Below are positions 5,849 through 44,307 of a stretch of DNA of 45,041 nt, one piece after another. Positions within the stretch are counted from its first letter, which is position 1. The number at the start of each line of letters is the position of its first letter. Made by a program: the position numbers and the translations under genes. Source of the stretch: a virus (taxonomy: Duplodnaviria; Heunggongvirae; Uroviricota; Caudoviricetes); IMG/VR virus record IMGVR_UViG_2802429245_000013; one strand, given 5' to 3'. The notes under the pieces were generated by a model. The model saw only the letters and a list, made by a program, of their open reading frames with translations. It searched no databases and was not told where the DNA came from.

Positions 5849-6855
5849 TACACCCTCACCCAGTTTTCAGCATACGCCTCGAACACTGTCACCCATGCAT
5901 CACCATCGGCCGTCAGATACGAGCCAATGTGTCTGACAGATTTAACCATAAATTTTCCGGTAAACGTGGTCGAGTTTTTGGAGATAACGCTAGGAGCCAT
6001 TGTATTAGCCATCACAATCGACGCTGCACCTGAATATAGCCCCTCCGGTAGTTTAACCACATCACCACATCTGATATCACCTCTCATTGGGCATTTGAAA
6101 CTGACAGTAAACGGCTCAATCCAAGTCGGCTGTCCAACCAGTTCATGGGCATGAATTGTTTTAGGTTCTCCCCACTTTGCCGACACGTTATCGTAAATTC
6201 GTATTCTGTCGGAAAGAATGCTGATGGCTATTCCGCTATATTTCGCATCACGCATCATCGCTATGGATGCGTTTTTTACGACCATCGCTAACGAGCCAAT
6301 ATTCTTATAGGACGCAGCCCATCTCTCAGGTAAAACAAGGCTGTCATTGACCAGACATTCAATCTTTTTTTTAGGAAAAGCTTCTTTCAGTGCACGTGCG
6401 ATAACATCCCCTACTTTCTCACCAGCTTCACCTTTACCCTCGATTGAGAAAGGGCTTCCATCTTCTTTTTTTCTGAGCGTTGGATTAATAACCAGATTCA
6501 ACGTCTGGTTGGTGCCAATCCAGTTAGCATAAGCCAGATAGACTTCACCGTAGATGATTTCCCCCTGCTGCTCAGGGTTGGCCAGAGGCAATCCTTCTGA
6601 AAACCCACCCCGCATTCTTACAATACACCCTTGCAAGTTAACGCTCTGTTTAAGCATATCGAGCGGTAAACCATATATCGCAAGCATGGTTCCCGAGTTC
6701 ACCACATCAAGTCCAGTCACCTGCACGTCAAATTCAATATGTAACCCACACCCGGGTGTTTTACTGGTATCAAAAGGCCCGATAGGTTTACCGTTGCAAT
6801 CCACTGGCGGCTTGCCTGTTTTAGGATTGATGATTTCCAGTCGGTAATAGCGCAT
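5848..6855 (-). CDS. Baseplate hub protein (Mu P / late control D-like position), 335 aa
   Basis: ORF track; start overlaps upstream stop; contractile-tail gene order. Confidence 0.45.
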   Translation of the reverse strand: MRYYRLEIINPKTGKPPVDCNGKPIGPFDTSKTPGCGLHIEFDVQVTGLDVVNSGTMLAIYGLPLDMLKQSVNLQGCIVRMRGGFSEGLPLANPEQQGEIIYGEVYLAYANWIGTNQTLNLVINPTLRKKEDGSPFSIEGKGEAGEKVGDVIARALKEAFPKKKIECLVNDSLVLPERWAASYKNIGSLAMVVKNASIAMMRDAKYSGIAISILSDRIRIYDNVSAKWGEPKTIHAHELVGQPTWIEPFTVSFKCPMRGDIRCGDVVKLPEGLYSGAASIVMANTMAPSVISKNSTTFTGKFMVKSVRHIGSYLTADGDAWVTVFEAYAENWVRV

Positions 6856-7121
6856 TACGAAACCTCAAACTGATTAGAACTTTCACGAAAAACGAGTTTC
6901 CCCGGCGAGCAAGGCAGCGCCAGATTGATGTCGTAATTGTCAGGTGACGCGATCAACGGTGTGTACACAATCACGTCGCCAGAACTGTCTTTCAGTTCCA
7001 GGTAGTAACGATTTGCATACAGATTAAACGGAACGCGGGCGAATGTTTCATATTCTCCGATTCTGGCCGTGAACTGAAACGGACCTCGCCCGTCCGGTTT
7101 GAAAGGAATTAACGTTGTCAT
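6855..7121 (-). CDS. Tail protein, 88 aa
   Basis: ORF track; translationally coupled within tail operon. Confidence 0.35.
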   Translation of the reverse strand: MTTLIPFKPDGRGPFQFTARIGEYETFARVPFNLYANRYYLELKDSSGDVIVYTPLIASPDNYDINLALPCSPGKLVFRESSNQFEVS

Positions 7122-7786
7122 AAGCCAATACCAAACTCCTGCACGACCTGGTTCTTAATACCTGACCACGATAGCGGACCGTCTGACGGCATCCCTTTAT
7201 CAAATTTATCCAGAACATTCGCCAGCGTCTTTACTGTTTGTTCGACAGACGACAATGGTTGCTCAAACTCAATCTGCCAGGTGTGCTGAACCTGCTTGTT
7301 CTGCTCAGAGAAACCGGATGTATCGATAAACGACCGCATCAGGCAGCGCGTGTAGATAAACGAGGGAGTCAGAACGGTGTAACAACCGCCATACTGGTTA
7401 TGCATATCAAGCGCCATTTTCAGCGCCGTGAACGTCATTCCCTTCGTGGTGTAGCCACCGTCCTCCGTTGATGCCGGACGGATCATCTGCATGGCTACCC
7501 GATTGGGCTTCCTGACGGTCGCATTCGCTGCCGTTACCTGGTTATAGAAATTCAGGTTACAAAGATCCTGCTGGACTAACGTTGTCCCCGCCATCGGGGT
7601 AAACGCCGCCATCGAACGTGTGCGTATCTCGCCATGCAGCAGACCGTTCGTGATGCTTAGCCCTTCAGTCAAAACAGCAATCGGCATCACCCCACCTGGA
7701 ATTTTCGACGCTATGCCGTCAACCAAAAGAATGGGCGAGACTTCAAACGCCAGTTTGAAAGCCTGTCCAAAGTAATTAAGTGACAT
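7118..7786 (-). CDS. Tail protein, 222 aa (between tape measure and hub)
   Basis: ORF track; operon context. Confidence 0.4.
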   Translation of the reverse strand: MSLNYFGQAFKLAFEVSPILLVDGIASKIPGGVMPIAVLTEGLSITNGLLHGEIRTRSMAAFTPMAGTTLVQQDLCNLNFYNQVTAANATVRKPNRVAMQMIRPASTEDGGYTTKGMTFTALKMALDMHNQYGGCYTVLTPSFIYTRCLMRSFIDTSGFSEQNKQVQHTWQIEFEQPLSSVEQTVKTLANVLDKFDKGMPSDGPLSWSGIKNQVVQEFGIGL

Positions 7787-7789
7787 GGT

Positions 7790-9907
7790 TTACCCCGGTA
7801 TTTGTTGCATTCCGGCGAGTTGTGCCAGTATATCTGAACCTGGTTTTTGTTGAACTTCGAGCCTGATTACCTGAGAAGCATTATTTGATGAATATACGTT
7901 CCCCCGGTTCATTGCCAGCGCCCGCATCACATCATCGCCACTTACAGCACGAGCGGCGGCCCCATTTTCATGGTTAATAATGCCCTGAATTAGCTTTCTC
8001 ATTAGCTCAAAATTAGAACCATCGATTTTCTCCTTAACACCTAATCCGGTGTACTGAGAGAGATAACTTTTATAGGACGATGTGTTATTTCCATCAGATG
8101 AAGGGGCATAAATATCAATAATCTGATCAATCGTATTTTTGCCGCGCTTCAGATATAGCATGACCTGTCGATCCAACGCAGCAATACCTTCCAGCATCGT
8201 CGGGAAGCTGGCAAAACGGGCATTTGGCCCCGATTCCAGGGTCGCCCCTTTTTGTCCTGCGAAATTAAGGTTTCCGGGATTGTTATTCCTGATCCCTCTG
8301 GATAAATATGCTGACCTGTTTACATTGTTTGAATATTCCTGCAATCCGTTTGCTGTCGCCACTCCCGGAATATCCATAGCAATTTCAGGCGTTCCCTGAA
8401 CGGTATTTTTACGCCCAAGATCGGTATCAATACCTATCCAGCGAAGCGCATCACCAACATTTCTCTTGGTGTAGTCCCATGATGAATTTGCCGAAGCGAT
8501 GATATTTTCGTGATCCTTATACGCATAAGCACCATAAGCCATTGCCGCAGAGATCAACGGATGCCTCATCATCGCAGTTACAACCGCACTCGCCACTCCA
8601 GTGAAAGCCCCGCTTCCTCCGGCAATAACCGCAGCCCCAAAAAGCCAGGGATGCTCAGCCGCAAAACCTACAAATCCGCCAAGAGCCTTAGTGACCTTTG
8701 CAACATTTCCGGCAAAATTATTCAGGTCGTTATTAAAATCCGGGCCATTTACGTACTTACCAAGCTTATCCAGCCCCGTTCCAACATCAGTCAGAATCCT
8801 TTTAAAGTTCTCACCATTCATGAAATTCAAGGCAGCATTCGTAGTACCATCAGAAATTCTGATTAAAGCGTCTGCATTCCCCGCCATAGCTCCTTGAAAT
8901 CCACTGGTCAGTCGATCCCAGTTATTTTCCAGGTTACTGGTAAGATTCTGATATTTACTTGTATGTGCAGATGTGAGCAACGAGTCATTCTGAGAAGCTC
9001 GCGATAAAAACTCTTTGTTGAGTTCAGGTATTTTGTCCTGATATTTGACTAACTGGTTAGCAAGACCAAAATTTACCCATCCAAGGCCACGGCCTCTGAG
9101 CATGCTCTGAGTAAGCCCGGAACCTTCATATTCCTTTGCAAGAGCAGCGACTCTTTCTAACAACACAGGGAGATTTTCTGCTGCCCCTTTTTTAGGATTT
9201 ATCCCTAACCCAATTAGCCCGTTGTAGGCAGGATGCTGAGTGTCATTCTGCGCGGCTGCCAGTGTATTGAGCAAATTACCAACACCGGAAAAATAAGGCG
9301 AATAGGTACTCTCTGCCGCCTTTAATTCTCCCGGCGTTGCCACAAGCTCATCTGCATTTTTCTGTTTTTCTACAACACTACGGGCCATCATGCCAAAGCC
9401 AAACGGCCCGGCAACGCCCATAACCGCAAGTTTTGTCCCCCACGATACGGTGGTTTTAAACAGGTTGTTTAATCTCGAAGTGGTCGTCCGTAGCGTAGAA
9501 TTGATCTGCTTGTAAGTTTTCAGCGTCTGTTTGGCGTTTTTCCCCAGCCCGCTGAGGTACTTATCAAACATCGTTTCGCCGCGACCTTTATAGTTGCTCA
9601 CCAGCGAATCCGCTGTTTTTCCGCTGCCAACAAAGCGCCCTTTTTCATCCCTTAAACGTCCATCACTGGACGCAGCCGGAACTGGCGCAGGTGAAGACGG
9701 TTTCCTGGGAGCCTGATTGGCTTCTCCGCCTGTGGTTGTCTGCCGGGCGCCACCTCCCTGACCTGTATTTGAAGGTATTTTAAGCGGCGTCCCGGCAGGA
9801 CCAATCATCAGCCCGTTGCGATACTTTTCAAATATCGCCTCAAGCCGCTTGAGGTGTTCTTCATTAACATCCAGCGTCAGAACTGGCATCTGGTTACCAG
9901 CCATCAC
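7790..9907 (-). CDS. Tail tape measure protein, 705 aa
   Basis: ORF track; large Gly/Ala-rich protein directly downstream of the frameshifted chaperone pair. Confidence 0.6.
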   Translation of the reverse strand: MMAGNQMPVLTLDVNEEHLKRLEAIFEKYRNGLMIGPAGTPLKIPSNTGQGGGARQTTTGGEANQAPRKPSSPAPVPAASSDGRLRDEKGRFVGSGKTADSLVSNYKGRGETMFDKYLSGLGKNAKQTLKTYKQINSTLRTTTSRLNNLFKTTVSWGTKLAVMGVAGPFGFGMMARSVVEKQKNADELVATPGELKAAESTYSPYFSGVGNLLNTLAAAQNDTQHPAYNGLIGLGINPKKGAAENLPVLLERVAALAKEYEGSGLTQSMLRGRGLGWVNFGLANQLVKYQDKIPELNKEFLSRASQNDSLLTSAHTSKYQNLTSNLENNWDRLTSGFQGAMAGNADALIRISDGTTNAALNFMNGENFKRILTDVGTGLDKLGKYVNGPDFNNDLNNFAGNVAKVTKALGGFVGFAAEHPWLFGAAVIAGGSGAFTGVASAVVTAMMRHPLISAAMAYGAYAYKDHENIIASANSSWDYTKRNVGDALRWIGIDTDLGRKNTVQGTPEIAMDIPGVATANGLQEYSNNVNRSAYLSRGIRNNNPGNLNFAGQKGATLESGPNARFASFPTMLEGIAALDRQVMLYLKRGKNTIDQIIDIYAPSSDGNNTSSYKSYLSQYTGLGVKEKIDGSNFELMRKLIQGIINHENGAAARAVSGDDVMRALAMNRGNVYSSNNASQVIRLEVQQKPGSDILAQLAGMQQIPG

Positions 9908-34281: not shown

Positions 34282-35070
34282 TTACCCCCTGAAGCCTGGC
34301 GGGATCGCACTGTCCGGCAACGAGACGGTGTTAACCTGTCGGAGCAACGTCTCAGGCCGAACGCCTTTCGGCGCGAACAAGCCCTGGTATTCATTGGCGA
34401 TGCTGTGTCTAATCACCTGCTCAGGGGTAAAACCCTGCTGGCGGAATTTTTCCAGCTCCCGTATCGCCCCGTTAGCGCCCTGCTCCGTTCGAATCGGTTT
34501 TCGTAATGCCTGTCTGAACCGGACCCACTCATGCCAGAGTGTTTCCGGCAACCAATCGGGCAACTCAATAGCCTCCGGCTCGAATTTTTTAGATGCTCGT
34601 TTTTGGCGAGGGGGATTTAGGGGGAGATCAGTATTTATATCTTCCTCTTCCTCTTCCTCTGGTAACGCTTTTTGATCCGTTTGTGTAACGCTGCCAGCGT
34701 TACCTTTTCGTTTCAGCTCGCGTAATTTTGTAACCCTCTCGTTTGTAATCGCCCGTTTTTTAGAGCTTTTTCCGTTATGGCGTTCAAAGTTAGGTAGAGA
34801 AAGCCCAACGTCATTTTCGACCAGCCATCCAACCTGAATTAACGCATCAGCAAAACCAGCCATAAAAGTGATGCGATCTATTGCACTTTTTGTAACGCCG
34901 CGAGCGTTACAATCTGCATTACCGTCTATCATTTGTTGATCCGCCCATGCCCAGAAGCGAATAACCTTCCCTAATGCGGCATCTGGATCAATATTCAGAA
35001 TCTCAGCAAGCCTGAATATTTCCGGCTTATCCGGCGTAATAACCTCGAGCTTTATCCAGTTTGAAGCCAT
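34282..35070 (-). CDS. Replication initiation protein (O-like / YdaU-like), 262 aa
   Basis: ORF track; position between CII-like and DnaC-like genes; acidic linker EEEEEED; contains two 19-bp palindromes. Confidence 0.5.
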   Translation of the reverse strand: MASNWIKLEVITPDKPEIFRLAEILNIDPDAALGKVIRFWAWADQQMIDGNADCNARGVTKSAIDRITFMAGFADALIQVGWLVENDVGLSLPNFERHNGKSSKKRAITNERVTKLRELKRKGNAGSVTQTDQKALPEEEEEEDINTDLPLNPPRQKRASKKFEPEAIELPDWLPETLWHEWVRFRQALRKPIRTEQGANGAIRELEKFRQQGFTPEQVIRHSIANEYQGLFAPKGVRPETLLRQVNTVSLPDSAIPPGFRG

Positions 35071-35102
35071 TTGTTTTCACCTTGTAACGCTCGCAGCGTT
35101 AC
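34685..35102. repeat. Three 19-bp palindromes GTAACGC-N5-GCGTTAC at 34685-34703, 34892-34910 and 35084-35102
   Basis: Read directly: gtaacgctgccagcgttac, gtaacgccgcgagcgttac, gtaacgctcgcagcgttac; two inside the O-like gene, one just upstream of its RBS. Confidence 0.6.
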
Positions 35103-35147
35103 ATTTAACTGATACCGAACAAAACAATCCGGCACGATTAATTTCAA

Positions 35148-35570
35148 TCAATGCACTACGACAGAATCACCGGGCGACCCACCACCGCTGAAATGTGCTT
35201 TCCGGTAAACGGCCTGGACTGCATCATCATGCGCATCAATTGCCGTACTCAACGCTTCCTGCGCCGCCAGTAATGCACGGCGTTCCAGGGTATCGAAGAT
35301 GCAGAGTCGGTGACGCAGCTCGCGCGGAAGAATTGCCAGAACCGCAGGGATCAGTGTCTGAATTTTTTCCCTTTGCGCTTTCGTTTCACCTTTTAACCAA
35401 CGGTGATAGATGTTCTGCTGATTATTCCAGTCCTTGCCTGGTACCAGGGGCAATTCGCCGCCCCCCTGGCGCAGATATTCTTCAGTAATTGCATTGGCTA
35501 CCCATGCCTGCCCTTTTTCAGCGGCCAGGGCTAACAGCACTGATTCGATGTGCTCATGCCTGATTTTCAT
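35148..35570 (-). CDS. CII-like / YdaT-like regulatory protein, 140 aa
   Basis: ORF track; second gene of the Cro-side operon. Confidence 0.45.
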   Translation of the reverse strand: MKIRHEHIESVLLALAAEKGQAWVANAITEEYLRQGGGELPLVPGKDWNNQQNIYHRWLKGETKAQREKIQTLIPAVLAILPRELRHRLCIFDTLERRALLAAQEALSTAIDAHDDAVQAVYRKAHFSGGGSPGDSVVVH

Positions 35571-35829
35571 GAATCAACTCCTGTGCATTTTGTGTGTTAG
35601 CCTTACATCCAACAGGTAAACCATCGGTCGGATTCGGGTAGATATCAGGCCGGAGTTCATGAGGTGTAACCTCGAAATTCGTTACTTCAGCAACACGTAA
35701 TGCTTTTTCAGGGCTGAATCTTTCATAGCCCCCCAGCACTCGACTTACATGCACCTGAGATAAACCCGTTAGCTTCCCAAACTGTAACTGGGTGATATGT
35801 TTCTCTTTTAAATAGTCTCTTAAGTTCAT
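35554..35829 (-). CDS. Cro-like HTH regulator (YdaS-like), about 91 aa
   Basis: ORF trimmed to ATG at 35829 with RBS GAAGGT; HTH QLQFGKLTGLSQVHVSRVLGG; divergent from repressor gene. Confidence 0.55.
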   Translation of the reverse strand: MNLRDYLKEKHITQLQFGKLTGLSQVHVSRVLGGYERFSPEKALRVAEVTNFEVTPHELRPDIYPNPTDGLPVGCKANTQNAQELIHENQA

Positions 35830-35859
35830 AGCCAACCTTCTACGTTATGCCTCGAACAA

Positions 35860-35888
35860 ATATTAGCTCCACTAATTTTAAAGATCAA
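35860..35888 (-). promoter_or_regulatory. Candidate Cro-side promoter (TTGATC-17-TAATAT on minus strand)
   Basis: Hexamers read from sequence in the 100-bp divergent intergenic region. Confidence 0.45.
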
Positions 35889-35904
35889 CAGTCAGACTAT
35901 CTTT
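35880..35904. promoter_or_regulatory. Operator-like inverted repeat AAAGAT-N13-ATCTTT in the immunity intergenic region
   Basis: Read from sequence; overlaps both candidate divergent promoters. Confidence 0.3.
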
Positions 35905-35930
35905 GATAATATTGGTAAAACAAATAAACT
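35903..35930 (+). promoter_or_regulatory. Candidate repressor promoter (TTGATA-16-TAAACT) giving a leaderless or near-leaderless transcript
   Basis: -10 hexamer ends 6 nt before the repressor ATG and no Shine-Dalgarno is present. Confidence 0.4.
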
Positions 35931-35936
35931 CTATGT

Positions 35937-36398
35937 ATGAAAAAAACACGCGAAGTGATTGCAACTCCAGAAGCGAGCAAGAATTTAAAAGCCGCATGGA
36001 ATGCAAGAAAAAAAGAGCTGAAGCTGACTCAAGAGCTGGCGGCTGAGTTGTTGGGATTCGAATCTCAAGGCACCGTTAGCCAGTATCTGAACGGCAAGAT
36101 ACCGGTAAATACCGACGCTGCGCTAAAATTTGCGGCTCTATTAAAGGTAAAACCAGAGGACATTCGAGAAGACCTTAAAGACTTAATGAATTATGTAAGA
36201 TCATCAGATACTTATGATGATAGCTTTTCAGGCAAAGGATGGAGGCTGGTCAATGAAGAACAGGCTGAGTTACTTAACCTCTTCGAGATTCTACCTGCGT
36301 CAGAAAAAGCCAAACTCCTTAACCAGCTACGTGGACTAAACAAGCTCTACGAGGAAGCCTTCGAGAACATGCTGGCACTAAAGAAACGTAACCAGTAG
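35937..36398 (+). CDS. CI/RacR-like prophage repressor (XRE-type HTH), 153 aa
   Basis: HTH LTQELAAELLGFESQGTVSQYLNGK; divergent from Cro-like gene; own terminator downstream. Confidence 0.6.
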   Translation: MKKTREVIATPEASKNLKAAWNARKKELKLTQELAAELLGFESQGTVSQYLNGKIPVNTDAALKFAALLKVKPEDIREDLKDLMNYVRSSDTYDDSFSGKGWRLVNEEQAELLNLFEILPASEKAKLLNQLRGLNKLYEEAFENMLALKKRNQ

Positions 36399-36413
36399 CC
36401 ACCACTCACTACC

Positions 36414-36447
36414 CCCTCCACAACAAAAAAACCGACGTCTTAGTCGG
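36414..36447 (+). terminator. Rho-independent terminator after repressor gene (bidirectional shape)
   Basis: AAAAAAA-AACCGAC-GTCTTA-GTCGGTT-TTTTTT. Confidence 0.6.
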
Positions 36448-36551
36448 TTTTTTTGTGCCATAACTTCTGCAAATCAGCTGTATAACTAATATTTTTCCCT
36501 TGAAAAAACATTTACATAGTTACTAAATCAAAAATATCATACGCCATACTG

Positions 36552-36580
36552 TTGACTTAAAATATCCGTGTTACTAATAT
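36552..36580 (+). promoter_or_regulatory. pL-like early-left promoter (TTGACT-17-TAATAT)
   Basis: Near-consensus hexamers 70 nt upstream of ydaG RBS; flanked by repeated GTTACTAA motif. Confidence 0.5.
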
Positions 36581-36647
36581 TTCTATCAAGAACAGCACGG
36601 CGCTGTAGGTTTTAGTTCCGCCACCCGGCGTTAAGGGGAGAGATAAG

Positions 36648-36782
36648 ATGGTGCATTACGAAGTAGTTCAGTATTTGATGGATTGTTGCGGTATCACTTA
36701 CAACCAGGCTGTGCAGGCTTTACGCAGCAACGACTGGGATCTCTGGCAGGCAGAAGCCTCTATCCGCAACAACAAGATGTGA
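36648..36782 (+). CDS. ydaG: YdaG-like small protein, 44 aa
   Basis: Hand-found ORF MVHYEVVQYLMDCCGITYNQAVQALRSNDWDLWQAEASIRNNKM; RBS AAGGGGAG; Rac gene order. Confidence 0.55.
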   Translation: MVHYEVVQYLMDCCGITYNQAVQALRSNDWDLWQAEASIRNNKM

Positions 36783-36793
36783 GGGTTCCCAAA

Positions 36794-36946
36794 ATGCAAA
36801 AAATCGACCTCGGCAACAACGAATCCCTAGTTTGTGGCGTGTTCCCCAACCAGGATGGAACGTTCACTGCCATGACTTATACCAAAAGCAAGACATTCAA
36901 AACGGAAACGGGCGCACGTCGCTGGCTTGCCAAAAATACCAGCTAA
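36794..36946 (+). CDS. ydaF: YdaF-like small protein, 50 aa
   Basis: ORF 36683..36946 trimmed to MQKIDLGNNESLVCGVFPNQDGTFTAMTYTKSKTFKTETGARRWLAKNTS. Confidence 0.55.
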   Translation: MQKIDLGNNESLVCGVFPNQDGTFTAMTYTKSKTFKTETGARRWLAKNTS

Positions 36947-37366
36947 TCCATTTATTGGATTAATTCAATATTCTCGCTGTAGGGGTATAGCCGAGGCCAC
37001 CAAAGCCCGGAGGTGGTGAAATAAAACCGGGCACAACACGAAGGCGCATTTCCGATATCCATAAAGAGTCGGTCTTGTCTGTTAAATTTAAATGGTGGGA
37101 ATGCGCCTCCGGTTGTGAATAACAACACCGCTGTGTGTAGTCTTGGTGGCATCAGTTTTTTCTTGAAGTTCGACTGATGTCCGCCCTTTTTAAAGTGAAT
37201 TTTGTGATGCGGTGAATGCGGCTAAGCGCACGCGGCACAGTTAAAAGTCATGTTAGTCCTTATTGGTTTGGGTGGGAAAGCCGACTGTAATTGTTAACTG
37301 GTTGCAGTCACCTGGAGGCACCAGGCACCGCATCAACAAAGTTCATTTGTAAAAATGGAGATAATT

Positions 37367-37588
37367 ATGATTGCACATCACTTCGGAACTGATGAAATAC
37401 CACGTCAGTGTGTGACTCCTGGTGATTATGTTCTTCATGAAGGCCGGACATATATCGCCTCGGCAAACAATATTAAAAAGCGAAAACTTTATATTCGTAA
37501 CCTGACTACAAAAACATGCATTTCTGACTGCATGATTAAAGTCTTCCTCGGTCGTGATGGTTTACCTGTAAAGGCGGAGTCATGGTGA
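37367..37588 (+). CDS. kilR: KilR, prophage-encoded cell division (FtsZ) inhibitor, 73 aa
   Basis: Translation [49 protein letters not shown]... recognised as Rac KilR; RBS GGAG. Confidence 0.8.
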
Positions 37589-37758
37589 TGACTAAGAAAA
37601 TAAAATGTGCTTACCACCTTTGCAATAAAGAAATTGAAGAAAGCAAAAGTATTAAAAGACCTCTTCATTTCATGCGTGGAGTTATCCCAATGACGGAAAT
37701 GAAAAAATATTGTAGTGAAAGTTGTGCCGAAAAAGACCAGATGGCACACGAACTTTAA
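37588..37758 (+). CDS. ydaE: YdaE-like zinc-binding small protein, 56 aa
   Basis: Hand-found [59 protein letters not shown]; ATG overlaps kilR stop (TGATG). Confidence 0.65.
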   Translation: MTKKIKCAYHLCNKEIEESKSIKRPLHFMRGVIPMTEMKKYCSESCAEKDQMAHEL

Positions 37759-37832
37759 TTAACTGACTATTCGAAACTGAATTTATGCCAGCAATGGCAG
37801 GGATTCGCTCAACCTTAATTAAGGAGAAAAAC

Positions 37833-38108
37833 ATGATTACCAATTATGAAGCCACTGTTGTAACGACCGATGACATTGTTCACGAGGTTAATCTGGAAGG
37901 AAAGCGTATTGGCTACGTGATTAAAACAGAAAATAAAGAAACCCCATTCACTGTGGTTGATATCGACGGTCCATCAGGCAACGTAAAAACACTTGATGAA
38001 GGTGTCACAAAAATGTGCCTGGTTCACATCGGAAAGAATCTGCCCGCAGAAAAAAAAGCCGGATTTCTGGCAACTCTGATTGCAATGAAATTAGGCGGTG
38101 AAATCTGA
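37833..38108 (+). CDS. racC: RacC, 91 aa
   Basis: ORF 37785..38108 trimmed to MITNYEATVVTTDDIVHEVNLEGKRIGYVIKTENKETPF... with RBS AAGGAG. Confidence 0.7.
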   Translation: MITNYEATVVTTDDIVHEVNLEGKRIGYVIKTENKETPFTVVDIDGPSGNVKTLDEGVTKMCLVHIGKNLPAEKKAGFLATLIAMKLGGEI

Positions 38109-38209
38109 AAGAAATAGCCTGCGCCATACGCAGGCTATGAACAGTGTGTATCCGGCAAGATCATTCACTGAACAAAACGAATTTTAATCTGAGTTGAGGT
38201 TAAAAAACA

Positions 38210-41200
38210 ATGAGCACAAAACCACTCTTCCTGTTACGGAAAGCGAAAAAATCATCCGGTGAACCTGACGTCGTCCTGTGGGCAAGCGACGATTTTGAAT
38301 CGACCTGTGCCACTCTGGACTACCTGCTCGTTAAGTCAGGTAAAAAACTGAGCAACTATTTTAAAGCTGTTGCCACAAATTTTCCTGTCGTTAATGACCT
38401 TCCCCCTGAAGGTGAGATCGATTTTACCTGGAGTGAACGCTATCAACTCAACAAAGACTCCATGACCTGGGAACTAAAACCGGGAGCAGCGCCAGACGAC
38501 GTTCACCATCAGGAGGATGCACCGGAAACCGAAGAACCGACGGGAGGCCAGGAAGAAAACGCGCAGGCAGACGCCCACGAGGATTGCCAGGATTGCGAAG
38601 TCTCTGTAGCCACTTTGCGGTTCACACAGCGTCTTCTGCACATTTTTACGTATGCAGCCGGGGATCGAAAATACCTGCATCATGCCACCCGTGAACAACG
38701 CAAACACATTACTGCTCTTGAGATGGATCAGGAAAACAGCTATGTCCAGAATCTGCTGTTGGCCATACGCAGCATGGCAGAACCGACAACTCTGGATAAT
38801 GCCGCCCTGCTCCGCCTGACTGATGCAATTAAGGCAGTGTTCTCTATCACGAAAAAACATCAGCCCTATGAATTTAAGAATTTCATTTCAGCCTGGCTGG
38901 ATACCGAACACATTGATCGCGGTCTTCTGACAAAAGAATGGCGAAAAGGGAATCGTGTTTCACGCATCACTCGCACGGCTTCCGGTGCTAATGCTGGCGG
39001 CGGGAACCTCACCGATCGCGGCGAAGGTTTCGTCCACGATCTGACGTCACTGGCGCGCGATGTAGCCACTGGCGTACTGGCCCGTTCAATGGACGTGGAC
39101 ATCTATAACCTTCATCCGGCACACGCTAAACGCATTGAGGAAATTATCGCTGAAAATAAACCGCCCTTTTCTGTTTTCCGCGACAAATTCATCACCATGC
39201 CTGGCGGGCTGGATTATTCCCGCGCCATCGTGGTTGCGTCCGTGAAAGAAGCACCAATTGGGATCGAGGTCATCCCCGCACACGTCACTGAATATCTGAA
39301 CAAAGTACTGACTGAAACCGATCATGCCAACCCTGATCCGGAAATCGTGGATATTGCCTGCGGTCGCTCCTCGGCCCCGATGCCGCAGCGAGTAACAGAA
39401 GAAGGAAAACAGGACGATGAAGAAAAACCACAACCATCTGGCGCAATGGCAGATGAACAGGCAACGGCTGAAACAGTGGAACCGAATGCAACTGAACATC
39501 ATCAGAACACGCAGCCGCTGGATGCTCAGTCACAGGTAAATTCTGTTGATGCGAAATATCAGGAACTGCGGGCAGAACTCCATGAAGCCCGGAAAAACAT
39601 TCCATCAAAAAATCCTGTCGATGCCGATAAATTGCTTGCTGCATCACGTGGTGAATTTGTTGACGGAATTAGCGACCCGAACGATCCGAAATGGGTTAAG
39701 GGGATCCAGACTCGCGATTCTGTGTACCAGAACCAGCCAGAAACGGAAAAAATCAGCCCGGATGCGAAACAACCTGAGCCAGTAGTGCAACAGGAACCGG
39801 AAATAGTCTGCAATGCCTGCGGTCAGACTGGCGGGGATAACTGCCCTGACTGTGGTGCGGTGATGGGCGACGCAACGTATCAGAAAACCTTTAATGAAGA
39901 AAATCAGAATGAATATCAGGAAAAAGGTCTGGAGGAAATGGAAGGCGCTGAACATCCGCACAATGAGAATGCTGGCAGCGATCCGCATCGCGATTGCAGT
40001 GATGAAACTGGCGAAGCGTCAGCTCCTGTAGCAACTGAAATCATGTGGCCGTCATATTTCGAGCCAGGCCGCTATGAAAACCTCCCGAACGAGGTTTATC
40101 ACTCCGCCAACGGAATAAGCAGCACGATGCTGAAGGATGCCCGTATCAGCCTGATGTATTACCACGGGAGGCACATTGCCGGAACTATTCCGAACGAGGA
40201 AAGTGATGCACTGCTGCGTGGGCGGATCATTCACAGCTATGTTCTGGAAACGGATAAATTCGCTGATGAATATGCCATTCCGGTACCGGTTCCTGAATAT
40301 GTGGTTACTACTTCTAACGAACTGATCGCCATCATTAAAAAACACAATGCCAGTCTGCCAGCACTGATGACACCAGAGCAGATGAAAGAGTGGATCGAAA
40401 GCTACAACAGCACTCTTATACAGCCACTGTCTGTAAGTGCTGGGGCCGAAGAAACAGGCATCCTTTACGGTTCACTTCCGGTGGAATTTCGGCGTATTCC
40501 TGAGGGGGAAAAACACACAGCATCAGCAATGAAAGCCTGTATTAAAGAATACAACGCAAGCCTCCCTCCTCTGTTGAAAACCAGTGGAGCACGGGAGCAG
40601 CTTCTGGATCAAATTGAAACTGTAGACCCAGAACTGGCAAAAAAAGAACGTGCTAAATCGTTGCCTTACAACATCAGTGGCACAAAAGAGCAATTAACCG
40701 AAATCGCACGGAAAATTCGCCCGGAACTGGTGACACTGGAGGACTGGCAAAAACGCCAGCAAGAAGAAAACGCCGGGAAAACGTTTATCAGTCCGGATAT
40801 GTATGAACAGGCAAAAAATATTCACGCGGCACTGCAAAACAATACCGATGCAGCAAGGCTACTCAACCACCCGGATCGCAAATCTGAAATCAGCTATTTC
40901 GGGTTTGATGAAGAAACCGGGCTGGAAATCAGGGTCCGCCCTGATATCGAAATCCGGCTGCCATACGAAAGCATTTGCGCTGACGTGAAGTCAGTCAGCC
41001 TCGGTTATGTGCGGCAGGAACGACTTAAAGATCGCCTGCACCTTGAAATTATTGAGCGTGATTATCACCTCAGCGCCGCAATGTATTGCGATGTGGCAAA
41101 CCTGGACAAATTTTTCTGGATCTTCGTCAACAAAGATGTTGGCTATCACTGGGTGGCAGTCGTGGAAGCCTCGCAGGAACTCCTGGAGCTTGGTCGACAG

Positions 41201-41335: not shown

Positions 41336-42438
41336 TGGAGAACCTGACCATGCAAAATACCAATATCATCACGACAGAGCAGACACCAAATACCATTTCT
41401 GCCAGTAACACTATTTTTAACGTTCAGGCGTTGACGCAACTTCAGGAAGTAGCCGGGTTGATGTCACAGGCCACCGTCACAGTTCCCGATCACCTTCGCG
41501 GAAAACCTGCCGACTGCATGGCAATTATCATGCAAGCCATGCAATGGGGCATGAACCCCTACGCTGTGGCTCAGAAAACACACCTGGTAAACGGAGTTCT
41601 GGGTTATGAAGCACAACTGGTTAACGCTGTGATCTCTAGCTCAAGTGCAATTGTAGGCCGCTTCCATTACAAGTACGAGGGAGACTGGGAGAAATGCTCT
41701 CGCACCCGAGTGGAGACCGTTAAGAAAACGGCCAAAGGAGGCGGAATCTATGAGAAAAAAGAAACGATCCCATGTTGGACCAGTGAAGATGAGTATGGTC
41801 TATCAGTTCGAGTGGGTGCAGTTCTTCGCAGTGAAAGTGAGATTACCTGGGGAGAACCGGTGTTTCTTTCCAGCGTGATTACGCGTAATTCTCCTTTATG
41901 GACCTCAAACCCGAAACAACAGCTCGCCTATCTGGCGTTGAAATACTGGGCTCGCCTTTATTGTCCTGACGTCATCCTGGGCGTGTATACCCCCGACGAA
42001 CTGGAAGAGCCACAGGAAAAAATCATCAATCCTGTGCCGGTACAGAATTATAGCGAGGTAAGCGAGCAGCGAACAGAAACCATCGAACAGCGTATTGACG
42101 AAGCGTGGATTGATGAATTCCGGCAGCGCGTCGAAAGCGCGGCCACGACTGAGGAAACCACTGCATTACGCCAAGAGATAGAGGATCAGAAAAACCAGAT
42201 CGGCGAATTCTTTGCCGAGCTTAAAGGAAAAGTGGTTCGGCGCCATCACCGTCTCAATGCTATTGCCAGTATCGAGAAGATGATAAATGACCTGCCTTCA
42301 TCAGGTGATCCAGAAGCAGAACAAAAATTTACTGCTCTGGAAAATACGCTGAATGCTGCACGACCACATCTGGGTGAATTATATGAGGCGTATAAAACGA
42401 CACTGACAGATATAAAACCAGAATATATCAGCTCCTAA
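41335..42438 (+). CDS. RecT/Redbeta-type single-strand annealing protein, 367 aa
   Basis: Immediately downstream of recE with overlapping stop/start (TAATG); recombinase partner position; N-terminus does not match the K-12 RecT sequence as I remember it. Confidence 0.55.
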   Translation: MENLTMQNTNIITTEQTPNTISASNTIFNVQALTQLQEVAGLMSQATVTVPDHLRGKPADCMAIIMQAMQWGMNPYAVAQKTHLVNGVLGYEAQLVNAVISSSSAIVGRFHYKYEGDWEKCSRTRVETVKKTAKGGGIYEKKETIPCWTSEDEYGLSVRVGAVLRSESEITWGEPVFLSSVITRNSPLWTSNPKQQLAYLALKYWARLYCPDVILGVYTPDELEEPQEKIINPVPVQNYSEVSEQRTETIEQRIDEAWIDEFRQRVESAATTEETTALRQEIEDQKNQIGEFFAELKGKVVRRHHRLNAIASIEKMINDLPSSGDPEAEQKFTALENTLNAARPHLGELYEAYKTTLTDIKPEYISS

Positions 42439-42501
42439 TATTGACTTTGGCGGTGTAGCCTCACCGCCATCACAAAATTTTATTATATGAGAGAAAAGAC
42501 A

Positions 42502-42877: not shown

Positions 42878-42983
42878 GTTGCATTATATCCAAACTAGAA
42901 CTTCATAGGTGATTATTAAAAATCAACCACGCCCGCCAGTATTCTGTATATTTACTGGCGGTCATATCGTAAGAGGTATGGCA

Positions 42984-43265
42984 ATGAATCTTGTGACACT
43001 CAAAACGTGGGGAAAACTCAGATATCCGGATAACCCACCATCAATATCAACGCTGAGACGATGGGCAAGGAATGGAAACATTTATCCTGCACCTGAACTA
43101 CACGGGAGGAGTTACAGGGTGGTTCCGGAGGCTTTCTATATCAACCCAAATAAGGTTGATACCGATATAACACACCATCAACCTAATGGGCGACAAGGGA
43201 GAGACAGTCCGTTACTGGAGAAGTTAAAACATGCAGCGGAAAAAATACGATCCCAATTTGCCTAA
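42984..43265 (+). CDS. xis: Excisionase (Xis), about 93 aa
   Basis: ORF 42909..43265 trimmed to Met with RBS AAGAGG; ...TLKTWGKLRYPDNPPSISTLRRWARNGNIYPAPEL... resembles lambda Xis; overlaps int start by 35 nt. Confidence 0.6.
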   Translation: MNLVTLKTWGKLRYPDNPPSISTLRRWARNGNIYPAPELHGRSYRVVPEAFYINPNKVDTDITHHQPNGRQGRDSPLLEKLKHAAEKIRSQFA

Positions 43266-44307
43266 AAACTTAACATATCGAAGGAGGGACAAAGCATATT
43301 ACTGGCGCAACCCTCTGACGAAAGAAGAATTTACACTAGGTAAAATTTCAAGGAGAGATGCAGTAGCGCAGGCAATTGAAGCAAATCATTATATATACAA
43401 AAACTACTCTCCTGCAGCCTTAATTGAAAAGCTTAAAGGGTTCGACTCATTTACTATGGCAGACTGGATTGAACGTTACAAAACGATTCTTATAAGGAGA
43501 AAAGTGTCCAGAAATACTTATAAAATTCGGATAAATCAACTGGAGACAATAAAAGAAAAATTGGGAGGAATTTTACTGACAGAAATAACCACTCGCCATA
43601 TTGCCGAGTTTCTTGATTTGTGGATTGAAGGAGGGAAAAACACAATGGCAGGATCAATGCGTTCTGTGTTGTCTGATATGTTTCGCGAGGCCATTGTTGA
43701 AGGACGTATATCTCAAAATCCAGTAACGCCAACAAGAGCACCGAAAATAGTAGTTACAAGAGAACGACTGAAACTAAAGACATACAACTGCATCAGGGAG
43801 GCAGCAGATCAACTTCCGGCATGGTTCCCATTAGCTATGGATTTAGCCCTTGTAACAGGACAACGTCGCGAAGACATAACGAATATGCGGTTCAGTGATA
43901 TTTATGATGATCGTCTCCACATCAGGCAAATTAAGACAGGAATGATGATTGCTATCCCCCTGTCACTCAGCCTTCCTGTCGCTGGTCTACGGCTTGGTAC
44001 AGTAGTTGAACGGTGCCGCCTGGTAAGCCGGGGAGATTATCTAATCAGTGCCGGGATTAGAAAAAACAGCCCTGACGGCAGCATTCACCCGGATGGCCTG
44101 ACAAAAAAATTTGTCGCAGCCAGAAAATTAACAGGTATCCAGTTCAGTGAAAACCCACCAACTTTTCACGAGATCAGAAGTCTGGCTGGACGATTGTACA
44201 AAGAAACATGTGGAGAAGAATTTGCCCAGCGCCTACTTGGTCACACATCGGAGAAGACAACAAAAATGTATCTTGATGAGCGAGAAAAAACGTACTTACT
44301 GCTCTGA
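43231..44307 (+). CDS. int: Integrase, lambda-family tyrosine recombinase, 358 aa
   Basis: N-terminus aligns with lambda Int by eye ([38 protein letters not shown] versus MGRRRSHERRDLPPNLYIRNNGYYCYRDPRTGKEFGLG); C-terminal [11 protein letters not shown]...[13 protein letters not shown] catalytic region. Confidence 0.85.

Follow-up and report, generated by a model that had tools for sequence, protein, structure and literature searches.

A repressor gene whose ATG lacks a Shine-Dalgarno (SD) sequence and follows closely on a promoter hexamer raises the question of where its transcript begins and how the switch around it may be controlled. Such a gene is found in a stretch of viral DNA of 45,041 nt (IMG/VR record IMGVR_UViG_2802429245_000013), hereafter the window, which is a lambdoid prophage in reverse orientation according to its open reading frame (ORF) list and Pfam matches. 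The repressor, a helix-turn-helix (HTH; HTH_3) protein of 153 amino acids (aa), is encoded rightward at 35937-36398 from an ATG at 35937. Leftward, a 91-aa Cro-like HTH protein of the YdaS family (Pfam YdaS_toxin 2.4e-07, HTH_3 9e-07) is encoded at 35554-35829 from an ATG at 35829, which is also the RefSeq start. A first-pass annotation had proposed a compact divergent switch here, with about 100 bp between the two starts and a probably leaderless repressor transcript. The gap between the start codons (35830-35936) measures 107 bp and the gene content is that of a lambdoid early region, and the analysis supports the reading of the region as a divergent lysis/lysogeny switch, with a right-operator (OR-type) control region wired like lambda OR. 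The whole model, an OR-type switch of the Rac family with a leaderless repressor mRNA, dyad operators, lambda-like wiring and a different immunity specificity, is in our judgement quite likely, as argued from sequence and from analogy.

The -10 hexamer TAAACT (35925-35930) of the rightward promoter is followed by ctatgt and then by the repressor ATG, the A of which is the seventh base after the hexamer. A TAA in frame with the gene is contained in this hexamer (35925-35927), and ATG 35937 is therefore the only possible repressor start. No SD sequence was found in the 20 nt upstream of this ATG, where the best anti-SD duplex energy is +1.6 kcal/mol, versus -5.8 kcal/mol over the 20 nt upstream of the Cro-like gene, which possesses a GAAGG SD sequence. 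The missing SD sequence and the distance of about 7 nt from the -10 hexamer, both pointed out in the first-pass annotation, are thus borne out, with 6 nt lying between hexamer and ATG. The first 13 nt of the predicted leaderless mRNA are unpaired. The N-terminus M[KR][KR] is conserved among the homologues; it is basic and reads MKKTRE in the window.

Homologous loci were gathered from genomes, metagenomes and viral contigs, giving 96 loci with 55 distinct upstream sequences. The scan of genome contigs yielded three of them, and the diversity was supplied by the searches of encoding contigs and viral contigs. The loci were grouped into about 15 lineages, with repressors 55-100% identical and the 60 nt upstream only 27-53% identical to the window. 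TAnnnT is present at exactly -12 to -7 from the repressor ATG in 13 of the 15 lineages, and nAnnnT in all 15, while TAnnnT at any other offset is found in two lineages at most. The spacing from -10 to ATG is held in all 11 close homologues and in two distant ones. The 6-nt spacer itself varies freely (ctatgt, aagcag, gaacgt, ggtggt, gagcgc, ttacga and others), which argues for selection on the position of the hexamer and not on a longer sequence block.

The same layout is found in phages and prophages whose repressor transcripts are known. The lambda sequence reads TAGATT, then taacgt, then the cI ATG, so that the likeness to cI transcribed from pRM, also claimed in the first-pass annotation, holds to the base: hexamer, 6 nt, ATG. 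K-12 racR has GAATAT, 6 nt and ATG. In K-12, differential RNA sequencing mapped no leader (0 nt) for racR or for the e14 repressor gene ymfK, and one of 3 nt for dicA (PMC4681348). The repressor PaaR2 of CP-933P is translated from a PRM933P transcript that has no leader, as established by 5' RACE, N-terminal sequencing and mass spectrometry; it activates itself at a low level and represses PR (PMC8630535). Because of the fixed spacing, the sole start, the lambda layout and the mapped 5' ends of analogous repressors, the repressor mRNA of the window is read as leaderless, with its 5' end very likely at the A of ATG 35937. The lineage-wide spacing and the sister systems strongly, though indirectly, support the earlier proposal, and its wording of probably leaderless stays apt.

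Several observations speak against this reading. A second -10-like hexamer, TAATAT, is present at 35907-35912, with nAnnnT in 11 of the 15 lineages, and could give an 18-nt leader without an SD sequence. In some lineages, G-rich spacers touch the ATG (ggtggt, tgaggt), with anti-SD energies down to -6.2 kcal/mol, and these could be read as very close SD sequences. The Stx2a phage Lyz12581Vzw (NC_049917; positions 540-700 of our locus L100) has GGAGG 5 nt before its annotated repressor ATG. Its repressor is a cleavable cI whose N-terminal domain is related, its operators (TATTAG-N5-CTGATT, CAATAG-TCTAG-CTATTT) are of the same family, and this cI is likely a leadered counter-example within the domain family. 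This GGAGG indicates that leaderless expression is not universal in this repressor domain family. Two rare database variants (P0003 and P0005) also read MYEKTREV from ATG 35933, which precedes the proposed start.

In the segment 35933-35946, ATG 35933 is out of frame, stands 4 nt before the repressor ATG and is followed by a run of seven A. Loss of one A from this run puts it in frame, and locus L071 is also read so. As an upstream start the MYEKTREV variant was rejected: L071, the only such locus fetched, has a second frameshift, and the A7 run is present in 55 of 56 loci. L071 probably represents a pseudogene or a homopolymer error, and the variant looks like decay or such an error and not like a switch.

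The alternative that survives best builds on the TAATAT at 35907-35912. The maintenance transcript would start from this hexamer and carry an A/U-rich leader of about 18 nt without an SD sequence, and the TAnnnT beside the ATG would be part of O_R3, a tentative operator described below, or an A/U-rich translation enhancer. The hexamer is a good -10, its block is visibly conserved in the alignment, and a missing SD sequence alone does not prove a missing leader. However, the full TAnnnT is found at this offset in 2 of the 15 lineages, versus 13 at -12; the sequence at its -35 position (ATCAAC) matches at two of six bases; and the block is the left half-site of O_R3, AATATTGG. The hexamer at -12 stays TAnnnT in lineages that differ in the recognition helix (S or G at its third residue, H or Q at its seventh), as a polymerase element should, but this argument is weak, since those lineages keep the half-site ATATTAG as well and the specificity may not have changed. 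Finally, racR, ymfK and PaaR2, which are alike in geometry, start at the A of ATG. We regard a leadered maintenance transcript as unlikely and keep to a transcript that would begin at the A of ATG 35937.

Two distant loci carry the arrangement further. In L018 (2916-3003) and L017 (1667-1755), the intergenic region is only 82-83 bp long and the Cro-like ATG stands 7 nt past the leftward -10, TAATAT. Both divergent genes may be leaderless there, as far as the spacing tells.

Both promoters of the window lie exactly where the first-pass annotation had put them, with the hexamers and spacings it gave. The leftward, PR-type promoter (35860-35888) has the -35 TTGATC (35888-35883), a 17-nt spacer and the -10 TAATAT (35865-35860). 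The rightward, PRM-type promoter (35903-35930) has the -35 TTGATA (35903-35908) and a 16-nt spacer before TAAACT. With the start taken 7 nt past each -10, leftward transcription is predicted to begin near 35853, giving the Cro-like gene a leader of about 24 nt, and the two divergent starts (about 35853 and about 35937) are predicted to be about 84 bp apart. The description of both promoters as near-consensus was overstated, as the rightward one, which was a scanner hit, matches at 9 of 12 positions and the leftward one at 8 of 12, under the scanner threshold. The scanner reported five promoter-like sites in 1.2 kb of this A/T-rich stretch, compared with 2.2 +/- 1.5 in shuffles; because this is only about twice the shuffle rate, the hexamers are not significant by themselves. 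It is conservation that lifts these predicted hexamers above chance. Every aligned homologue retains both the -35 and the -10 of the leftward promoter. The rightward -35 lacks such conservation, as suits an activator-dependent promoter of the PRM type.

Three intergenic dyads that follow the pattern ATATTAG-N5-CTAATAT are the likely operators. O_R1 (35859-35879; AATATTAG-CTCCA-CTAATTTT, centre 35869) covers the -10 and the spacer of the leftward promoter, and O_R2 (35886-35902; CAACAG-TCAGA-CTATCT, centre 35894, palindrome AGTCAGACT) covers its -35; both are candidate operators. O_R3 (35908-35928; AATATTGG-TAAAA-CAAATAAA, centre 35918), which lies over the spacer and the -10 of the rightward promoter, has a good left half-site and a poor right one, and is considered a tentative, weak operator. 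A further candidate, O_L1 (36561-36581; AATATCCG-TGTTA-CTAATATT), lies over the -10 of a PL-type promoter on the right of the repressor gene. Each 21-mer of the window was scored against AATATTAG-N5-CTAATATT, with a maximum of 16. O_R1 ranked first (15/16) and O_L1 second (14/16), and O_R3 (12/16) was tied for the fourth to sixth places. All three exact copies of the 9-mer CTAATATTT in the 45 kb lie in the immunity region. The dyad centre is located 5 bp upstream of the first TAATAT base both at PR (35869 versus 35865) and at PL (36571 versus 36575). The dyad centres are 68, 43 and 19 bp from the repressor ATG, and those of lambda OR1, OR2 and OR3 are 66, 42 and 19 bp from theirs.

The pattern of variation adds to this. 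Among about 70 close E. coli relatives, 21 intergenic positions are variable, and eight of them fall in the ten central N5 bases of O_R1 and O_R2 (all five of O_R1 and three of five of O_R2 vary in the E. coli lineage), with the half-sites constant. This is the pattern expected of dyad operators with uncontacted centres. The 18-mer AGATCAACAGTCAGACTA around O_R2 is identical between the window and the distant L018, whose repressor also has an identical recognition helix, ESQGTVSQYLNGKIP; the helix is the same or nearly the same in L017 and Lyz12581Vzw. AG-N5-CT dyads were found 66-70 and 41-46 bp from the repressor ATG in L017, L018 and Lyz12581Vzw, and all three have a TATTAG-N5-CTnATn site at the position equivalent to O_R1. 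L018 possesses a third dyad (ATAG-CACGC-CTAA, centre 17 bp from the ATG), so that the intervals between its sites are 25 and 24 bp, like those of the window. The assignment is weakened by the scores of O_R2 and O_R3, only 9/16 and 12/16, and by the left side, where no clear O_L2 or O_L3 was found in the dyad scan of the 45-kb window and the candidates at 36543 and 36483 score 11/16, which is background.

The first-pass annotation had instead seen an inverted repeat, AAAGAT-N13-ATCTTT (35880-35904), overlapping both promoters, and this repeat could be a single repressor operator common to the two. It is indeed present (AAAGAT 35880-35885, ATCTTT 35899-35904, 13 nt apart), a perfect 6-bp repeat between the two -35 hexamers, with a looser 17-nt version that is 76% complementary. 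As an operator it was rejected. A perfect 6-bp inverted repeat with a loop of 3-20 nt occurs in 36-39% of shuffles of the 107-bp region, which puts the repeat at chance level; L018 shares the inner 18-mer but not the arms. Its centre (35892) lies 2 bp from that of the conserved AG-N5-CT dyad of O_R2. Nothing like it is evident around the PL-type promoter, where the dyad ATATTAG-N5-CTAATAT recurs, and a single operator leaves the three equally spaced dyads in four lineages unexplained. We hold such an operator to be very unlikely; the repeat arises in part from the face-to-face position of the two -35 hexamers, and the three dyads are the preferred operator candidates. The third-best dyad of the window (AATATATC-AGCTC-CTAATATT, 42422-42442, 13/16) lies at the recT 3' end, with a hairpin directly after it. 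Its right half alone is good, and it may be a chance match or a distant half-operator.

The repressor protein was compared with known repressors. Residues 12-78 match the solved N-terminal domain of lambda cI in a phmmer search of solved structures (3kz3, E 2.6e-04; 1lmb, E 8.5e-04), and Pfam finds HTH_3 (1.1e-09) and HTH_31 in it. The last 42 residues share 38% identity with DicA (BLASTP, E 8e-06). A Peptidase_S24/LexA-like cleavage domain is absent from the 153 aa, in which Pfam finds HTH_3 and HTH_31 only. Relatives that carry PF00717 together with the same N-terminal domain have 234-259 aa. No tblastn match at E <= 1e-3 was found to any Gifsy phage record in the phage collection, which makes the repressor DicA-like rather than GfoR-like. 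As predicted from these domains, it is a repressor of the short, non-cleavable type (range about 135-160 aa), with a cI-type N-terminus and a DicA-type C-terminus. DicA is relieved by the antirepressor Rem, and the Gifsy repressors are likewise relieved by antirepressors (PMC10448788, PMC3121763). The antirepressors of this repressor class are small and often controlled by LexA. By analogy, induction through an antirepressor is expected here, and not RecA-stimulated cleavage. Against this expectation, no antirepressor gene was found in the window, where antirepressors were not searched for systematically; no perfect LexA box (CTGT-N8-ACAG) is present in the window either.

That the leaderless start is inherited together with the lambda-cI-type N-terminal domain, the -10, the 6-nt spacer, the AUG and the basic arm forming one recombination unit, and did not arise by repeated convergence, is a tentative idea that we consider more doubtful than probable. 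With no greater confidence, this unit can be imagined to persist whatever C-terminus is joined to it, be it a cleavable S24 domain, a DicA-type stub or another one.

A second route to repressor synthesis is suggested by the ydaS/ydaT junction. The gene next to the Cro-like one encodes a 140-aa CII-like activator of the YdaT family (leftward, 35148-35570; Pfam YdaT_toxin 9.1e-11, above the family cut-off, as is the YdaS_toxin match), whose product matches the solved YdaT of CP-933P, distantly (8bt1, E 1.2e-06). The junction contains CTGATTTTCATGAATCAA (35560-35577), which has one mismatch to TTGATT-N6-AATCAA, the motif footprinted for CP-933P YdaT (PMC9986795). In our own comparison, it matches the K-12 Rac YdaT box at 16 of 18 positions, and the K-12 Rac box activates a reverse promoter for racR 29-fold. 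The box of the window is therefore a probable PRE-type reverse promoter site. Thus, a leadered repressor transcript of the PRE type is expected during establishment, which is compatible with a leaderless maintenance transcript and would parallel lambda and also Gifsy-3, in which an upstream promoter gives a longer repressor form on induction. A second YdaT-type inverted repeat, GTGATTATTAAAAATCAA, was observed at 42909-42926, again with one mismatch, where the 118-aa ORF begins, a short way upstream of the integrase gene. These two are the only YdaT-type sites with one mismatch in the 45 kb. Lambda CII has its PI promoter at the place equivalent to that of the second repeat.

To the right, the repressor gene is followed by an intrinsic terminator on the same strand (36423-36456), with perfect 14-nt arms, a hairpin of -19.7 kcal/mol (z = -7.1) and a T run after it, by which the predicted repressor transcript, consisting of one gene, is closed. 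The PL-type rightward promoter (36552-36582; TTGACT, 17-nt spacer, TAATAT) was a scanner hit, and the PR-type promoter is 71% similar over 35 nt to 36548-36582. It is taken as the PL equivalent because its hexamers (36552-36580) lie past the strong terminator and ahead of the kilR/recE operon. The Rfam scan of 35000-38300 gave no match in the intergenic region. Sub-threshold matches were observed to DicF (38.6 bits versus a gathering threshold of 48, E 3.9e-06) and STnc100 (37.4 versus 47), at 37132-37186 and 37188-37374, which suggests a diverged DicF-like small RNA in the PL-type operon, as in Qin.

The remaining genes of the window are arranged as follows. Left of the switch, a 262-aa ydaU-like replication gene at the ydaU position and, beyond it, a gene for a DnaC/IstB-like loader are both read leftward. 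Right of it, beyond the repressor terminator and the PL-like promoter, the rightward kilR/recE/recT/xis/int operon contains small ORFs, then the genes for a 1041-aa RecE and for RecT, and at the right end the 118-aa ORF at the excisionase position and the integrase gene (43231-44307). The prophage is, as judged from its sequence, a member of the Rac family of E. coli with an immunity module differing from that of RacR; the repressor has no homology to RacR, and its identity as RacR is excluded. The Rac site ttcA was not seen beyond int within the window itself; it adjoins the prophage in a close relative, E. coli NRZ103545 (L101). In the latter, a gene for an S8-family peptidase and one for an AAA ATPase were observed just past the replication genes (6058-9520); the two may form a pair with a cargo or defence role.

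Over the 951 bp around the switch, DNA identity is 98% with phage Rac-SA53 and 99% with several E. coli chromosomes. Of 5426 complete E. coli genomes, about 180 contain most of this module. E. albertii also carries it, and related versions were found in Salmonella, Hafnia, Serratia and Enterobacter. Annotators have labelled its genes 'helix-turn-helix protein', or dicA and dicC by analogy. The Rac-SA53 record is one in which they are named dicC and dicA (6082-6899 of our locus L002), by analogy only. The Cro-like protein is 32% identical to K-12 YdaS and has no detectable similarity to DicC. The weakest alternative, a toxin-antitoxin-like addiction cassette of YdaS and YdaT toxins with the HTH protein as antidote, is scarcely credible: it draws on the Pfam names 'Bacterial toxin YdaS' and 'Bacterial toxin ydaT', and on PMC5700373, in which RacR owes its essential role in K-12 to the repression of ydaS and ydaT, but it was rejected on the gene context, namely the order of a lambdoid early region (Cro-like, CII-like and replication genes, and a PL operon with recE, recT, xis and int) and the presence of the module in a 52-kb record that was submitted as the complete phage genome of Rac-SA53, and on published work, in which YdaS and YdaT act as the equivalents of Cro and CII (PMC9986795, PMC8630535) and YdaT activates the repressor promoter through its box.

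The preferred model of an OR-type switch with a leaderless repressor transcript would then work as follows. The leftward PR-type promoter would drive ydaS, ydaT and the replication genes. As the -10 TAAACT lies exactly 6 nt before the ATG, RNA polymerase would start at the A of ATG 35937 and produce an mRNA read from its 5'-terminal AUG. The repressor would bind the ATATTAG-N5-CTAATAT dyads; with O_R1 and O_R2 at the leftward promoter and O_L1 at the PL-type promoter occupied, lytic transcription would be shut off. From O_R2, about 43 bp upstream of the start, it would probably stimulate its own promoter with the weak -35. The weak O_R3 would cap the repressor level, or may be the preferred site of the Cro-like protein. 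In this model, the repressor would fill O_R1 and O_R2 first, and O_L1 too, and reach O_R3 only when abundant, and the Cro-like protein would follow the opposite order. During establishment, YdaT on the junction box would drive the second, leadered repressor transcript, and induction would proceed through an antirepressor. From gene identities, geometry, conservation, and dyad clustering and symmetry, all of which are observed, we infer the start site, the binding and its order, the self-activation and the induction route.

The predicted promoters, operators, terminator and YdaT box together make a testable map of a heteroimmune Rac-type switch, and the module is a further, broad comparative case beside the few leaderless mRNAs listed for E. 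coli. The known leaderless genes of this species have been compared under kasugamycin (PMC8794815). A spacing held over 15 lineages is among the cleanest evidence from sequence alone for selection on leaderless maintenance repressors. If the start is in fact inherited as one unit with the N-terminal domain, leaderlessness would be a built-in, selected property, and the reason why maintenance repressors do without ribosome-binding sites could be tested directly by comparison.

Experiments have already established this design for lambda, K-12 Rac, Qin, e14 and CP-933P, and the current understanding is unchanged by this locus. With lambda OR, the window shares the divergent repressor and cro genes (100 bp apart in lambda, 107 here), the -10, 6 nt and ATG, three dyads about 19, 42 and 66 bp from the ATG (candidate operators in the window, the nearest one tentative), a PL that resembles PR, and a homologous repressor N-terminal domain. 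The lambda operators are 17 bp long, in contrast to the ATATTAG-N5-CTAATAT dyads found here. Unlike lambda cI, which is co-transcribed with rexA and rexB, the repressor of the window has its own terminator, no S24 cleavage domain and a short DicA-like C-terminus. Unlike lambda CII, the CII equivalent is a YdaT-family protein recognizing an inverted repeat.

CP-933P of E. coli O157:H7 is alike in its Cro-equivalent YdaS, its CII-equivalent YdaT and its divergent PR and PRM (PMC8630535, PMC9986795), and also in the proven leaderless PaaR2, the palindromic operators containing TTAG (consensus GTTTAGTAA) and the YdaT repeat at the ydaS/ydaT junction. It differs in its repressor and immunity specificity, in having four palindromes as opposed to three candidate dyads, and in the co-transcription of PaaR2 with the paaA2-parE2 toxin-antitoxin pair, whereas the repressor of the window is predicted to be monocistronic. 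The Qin DicA/DicC system also has a short, non-cleavable repressor, and the DicA operators can be read as TTAG-N6-CTAA dyads. Its central spacer is 6 nt, compared with 5 nt here, and the Cro-like gene is not like DicC. BLASTP of DicA against the repressor of the window returned the C-terminal 42 residues only, with no alignment of the N-terminal HTH. The Rac-SA53 record (KU052037) contains the module at the 98% DNA identity given above, with a repressor that is 100% identical; it annotates genes only, and no promoters or operators.

K-12 Rac is of the same prophage family, with the same flanking operons, the racR hexamer at 6 nt from the ATG and a nearly identical YdaT box. Its intergenic region differs, being 123 bp long with GCCTAA-type repeats, as do its repressor RacR, to which that of the window is unrelated, and its YdaS, at the 32% identity already mentioned. 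Judging from these sequences, the prophage of the window and K-12 Rac should be heteroimmune.

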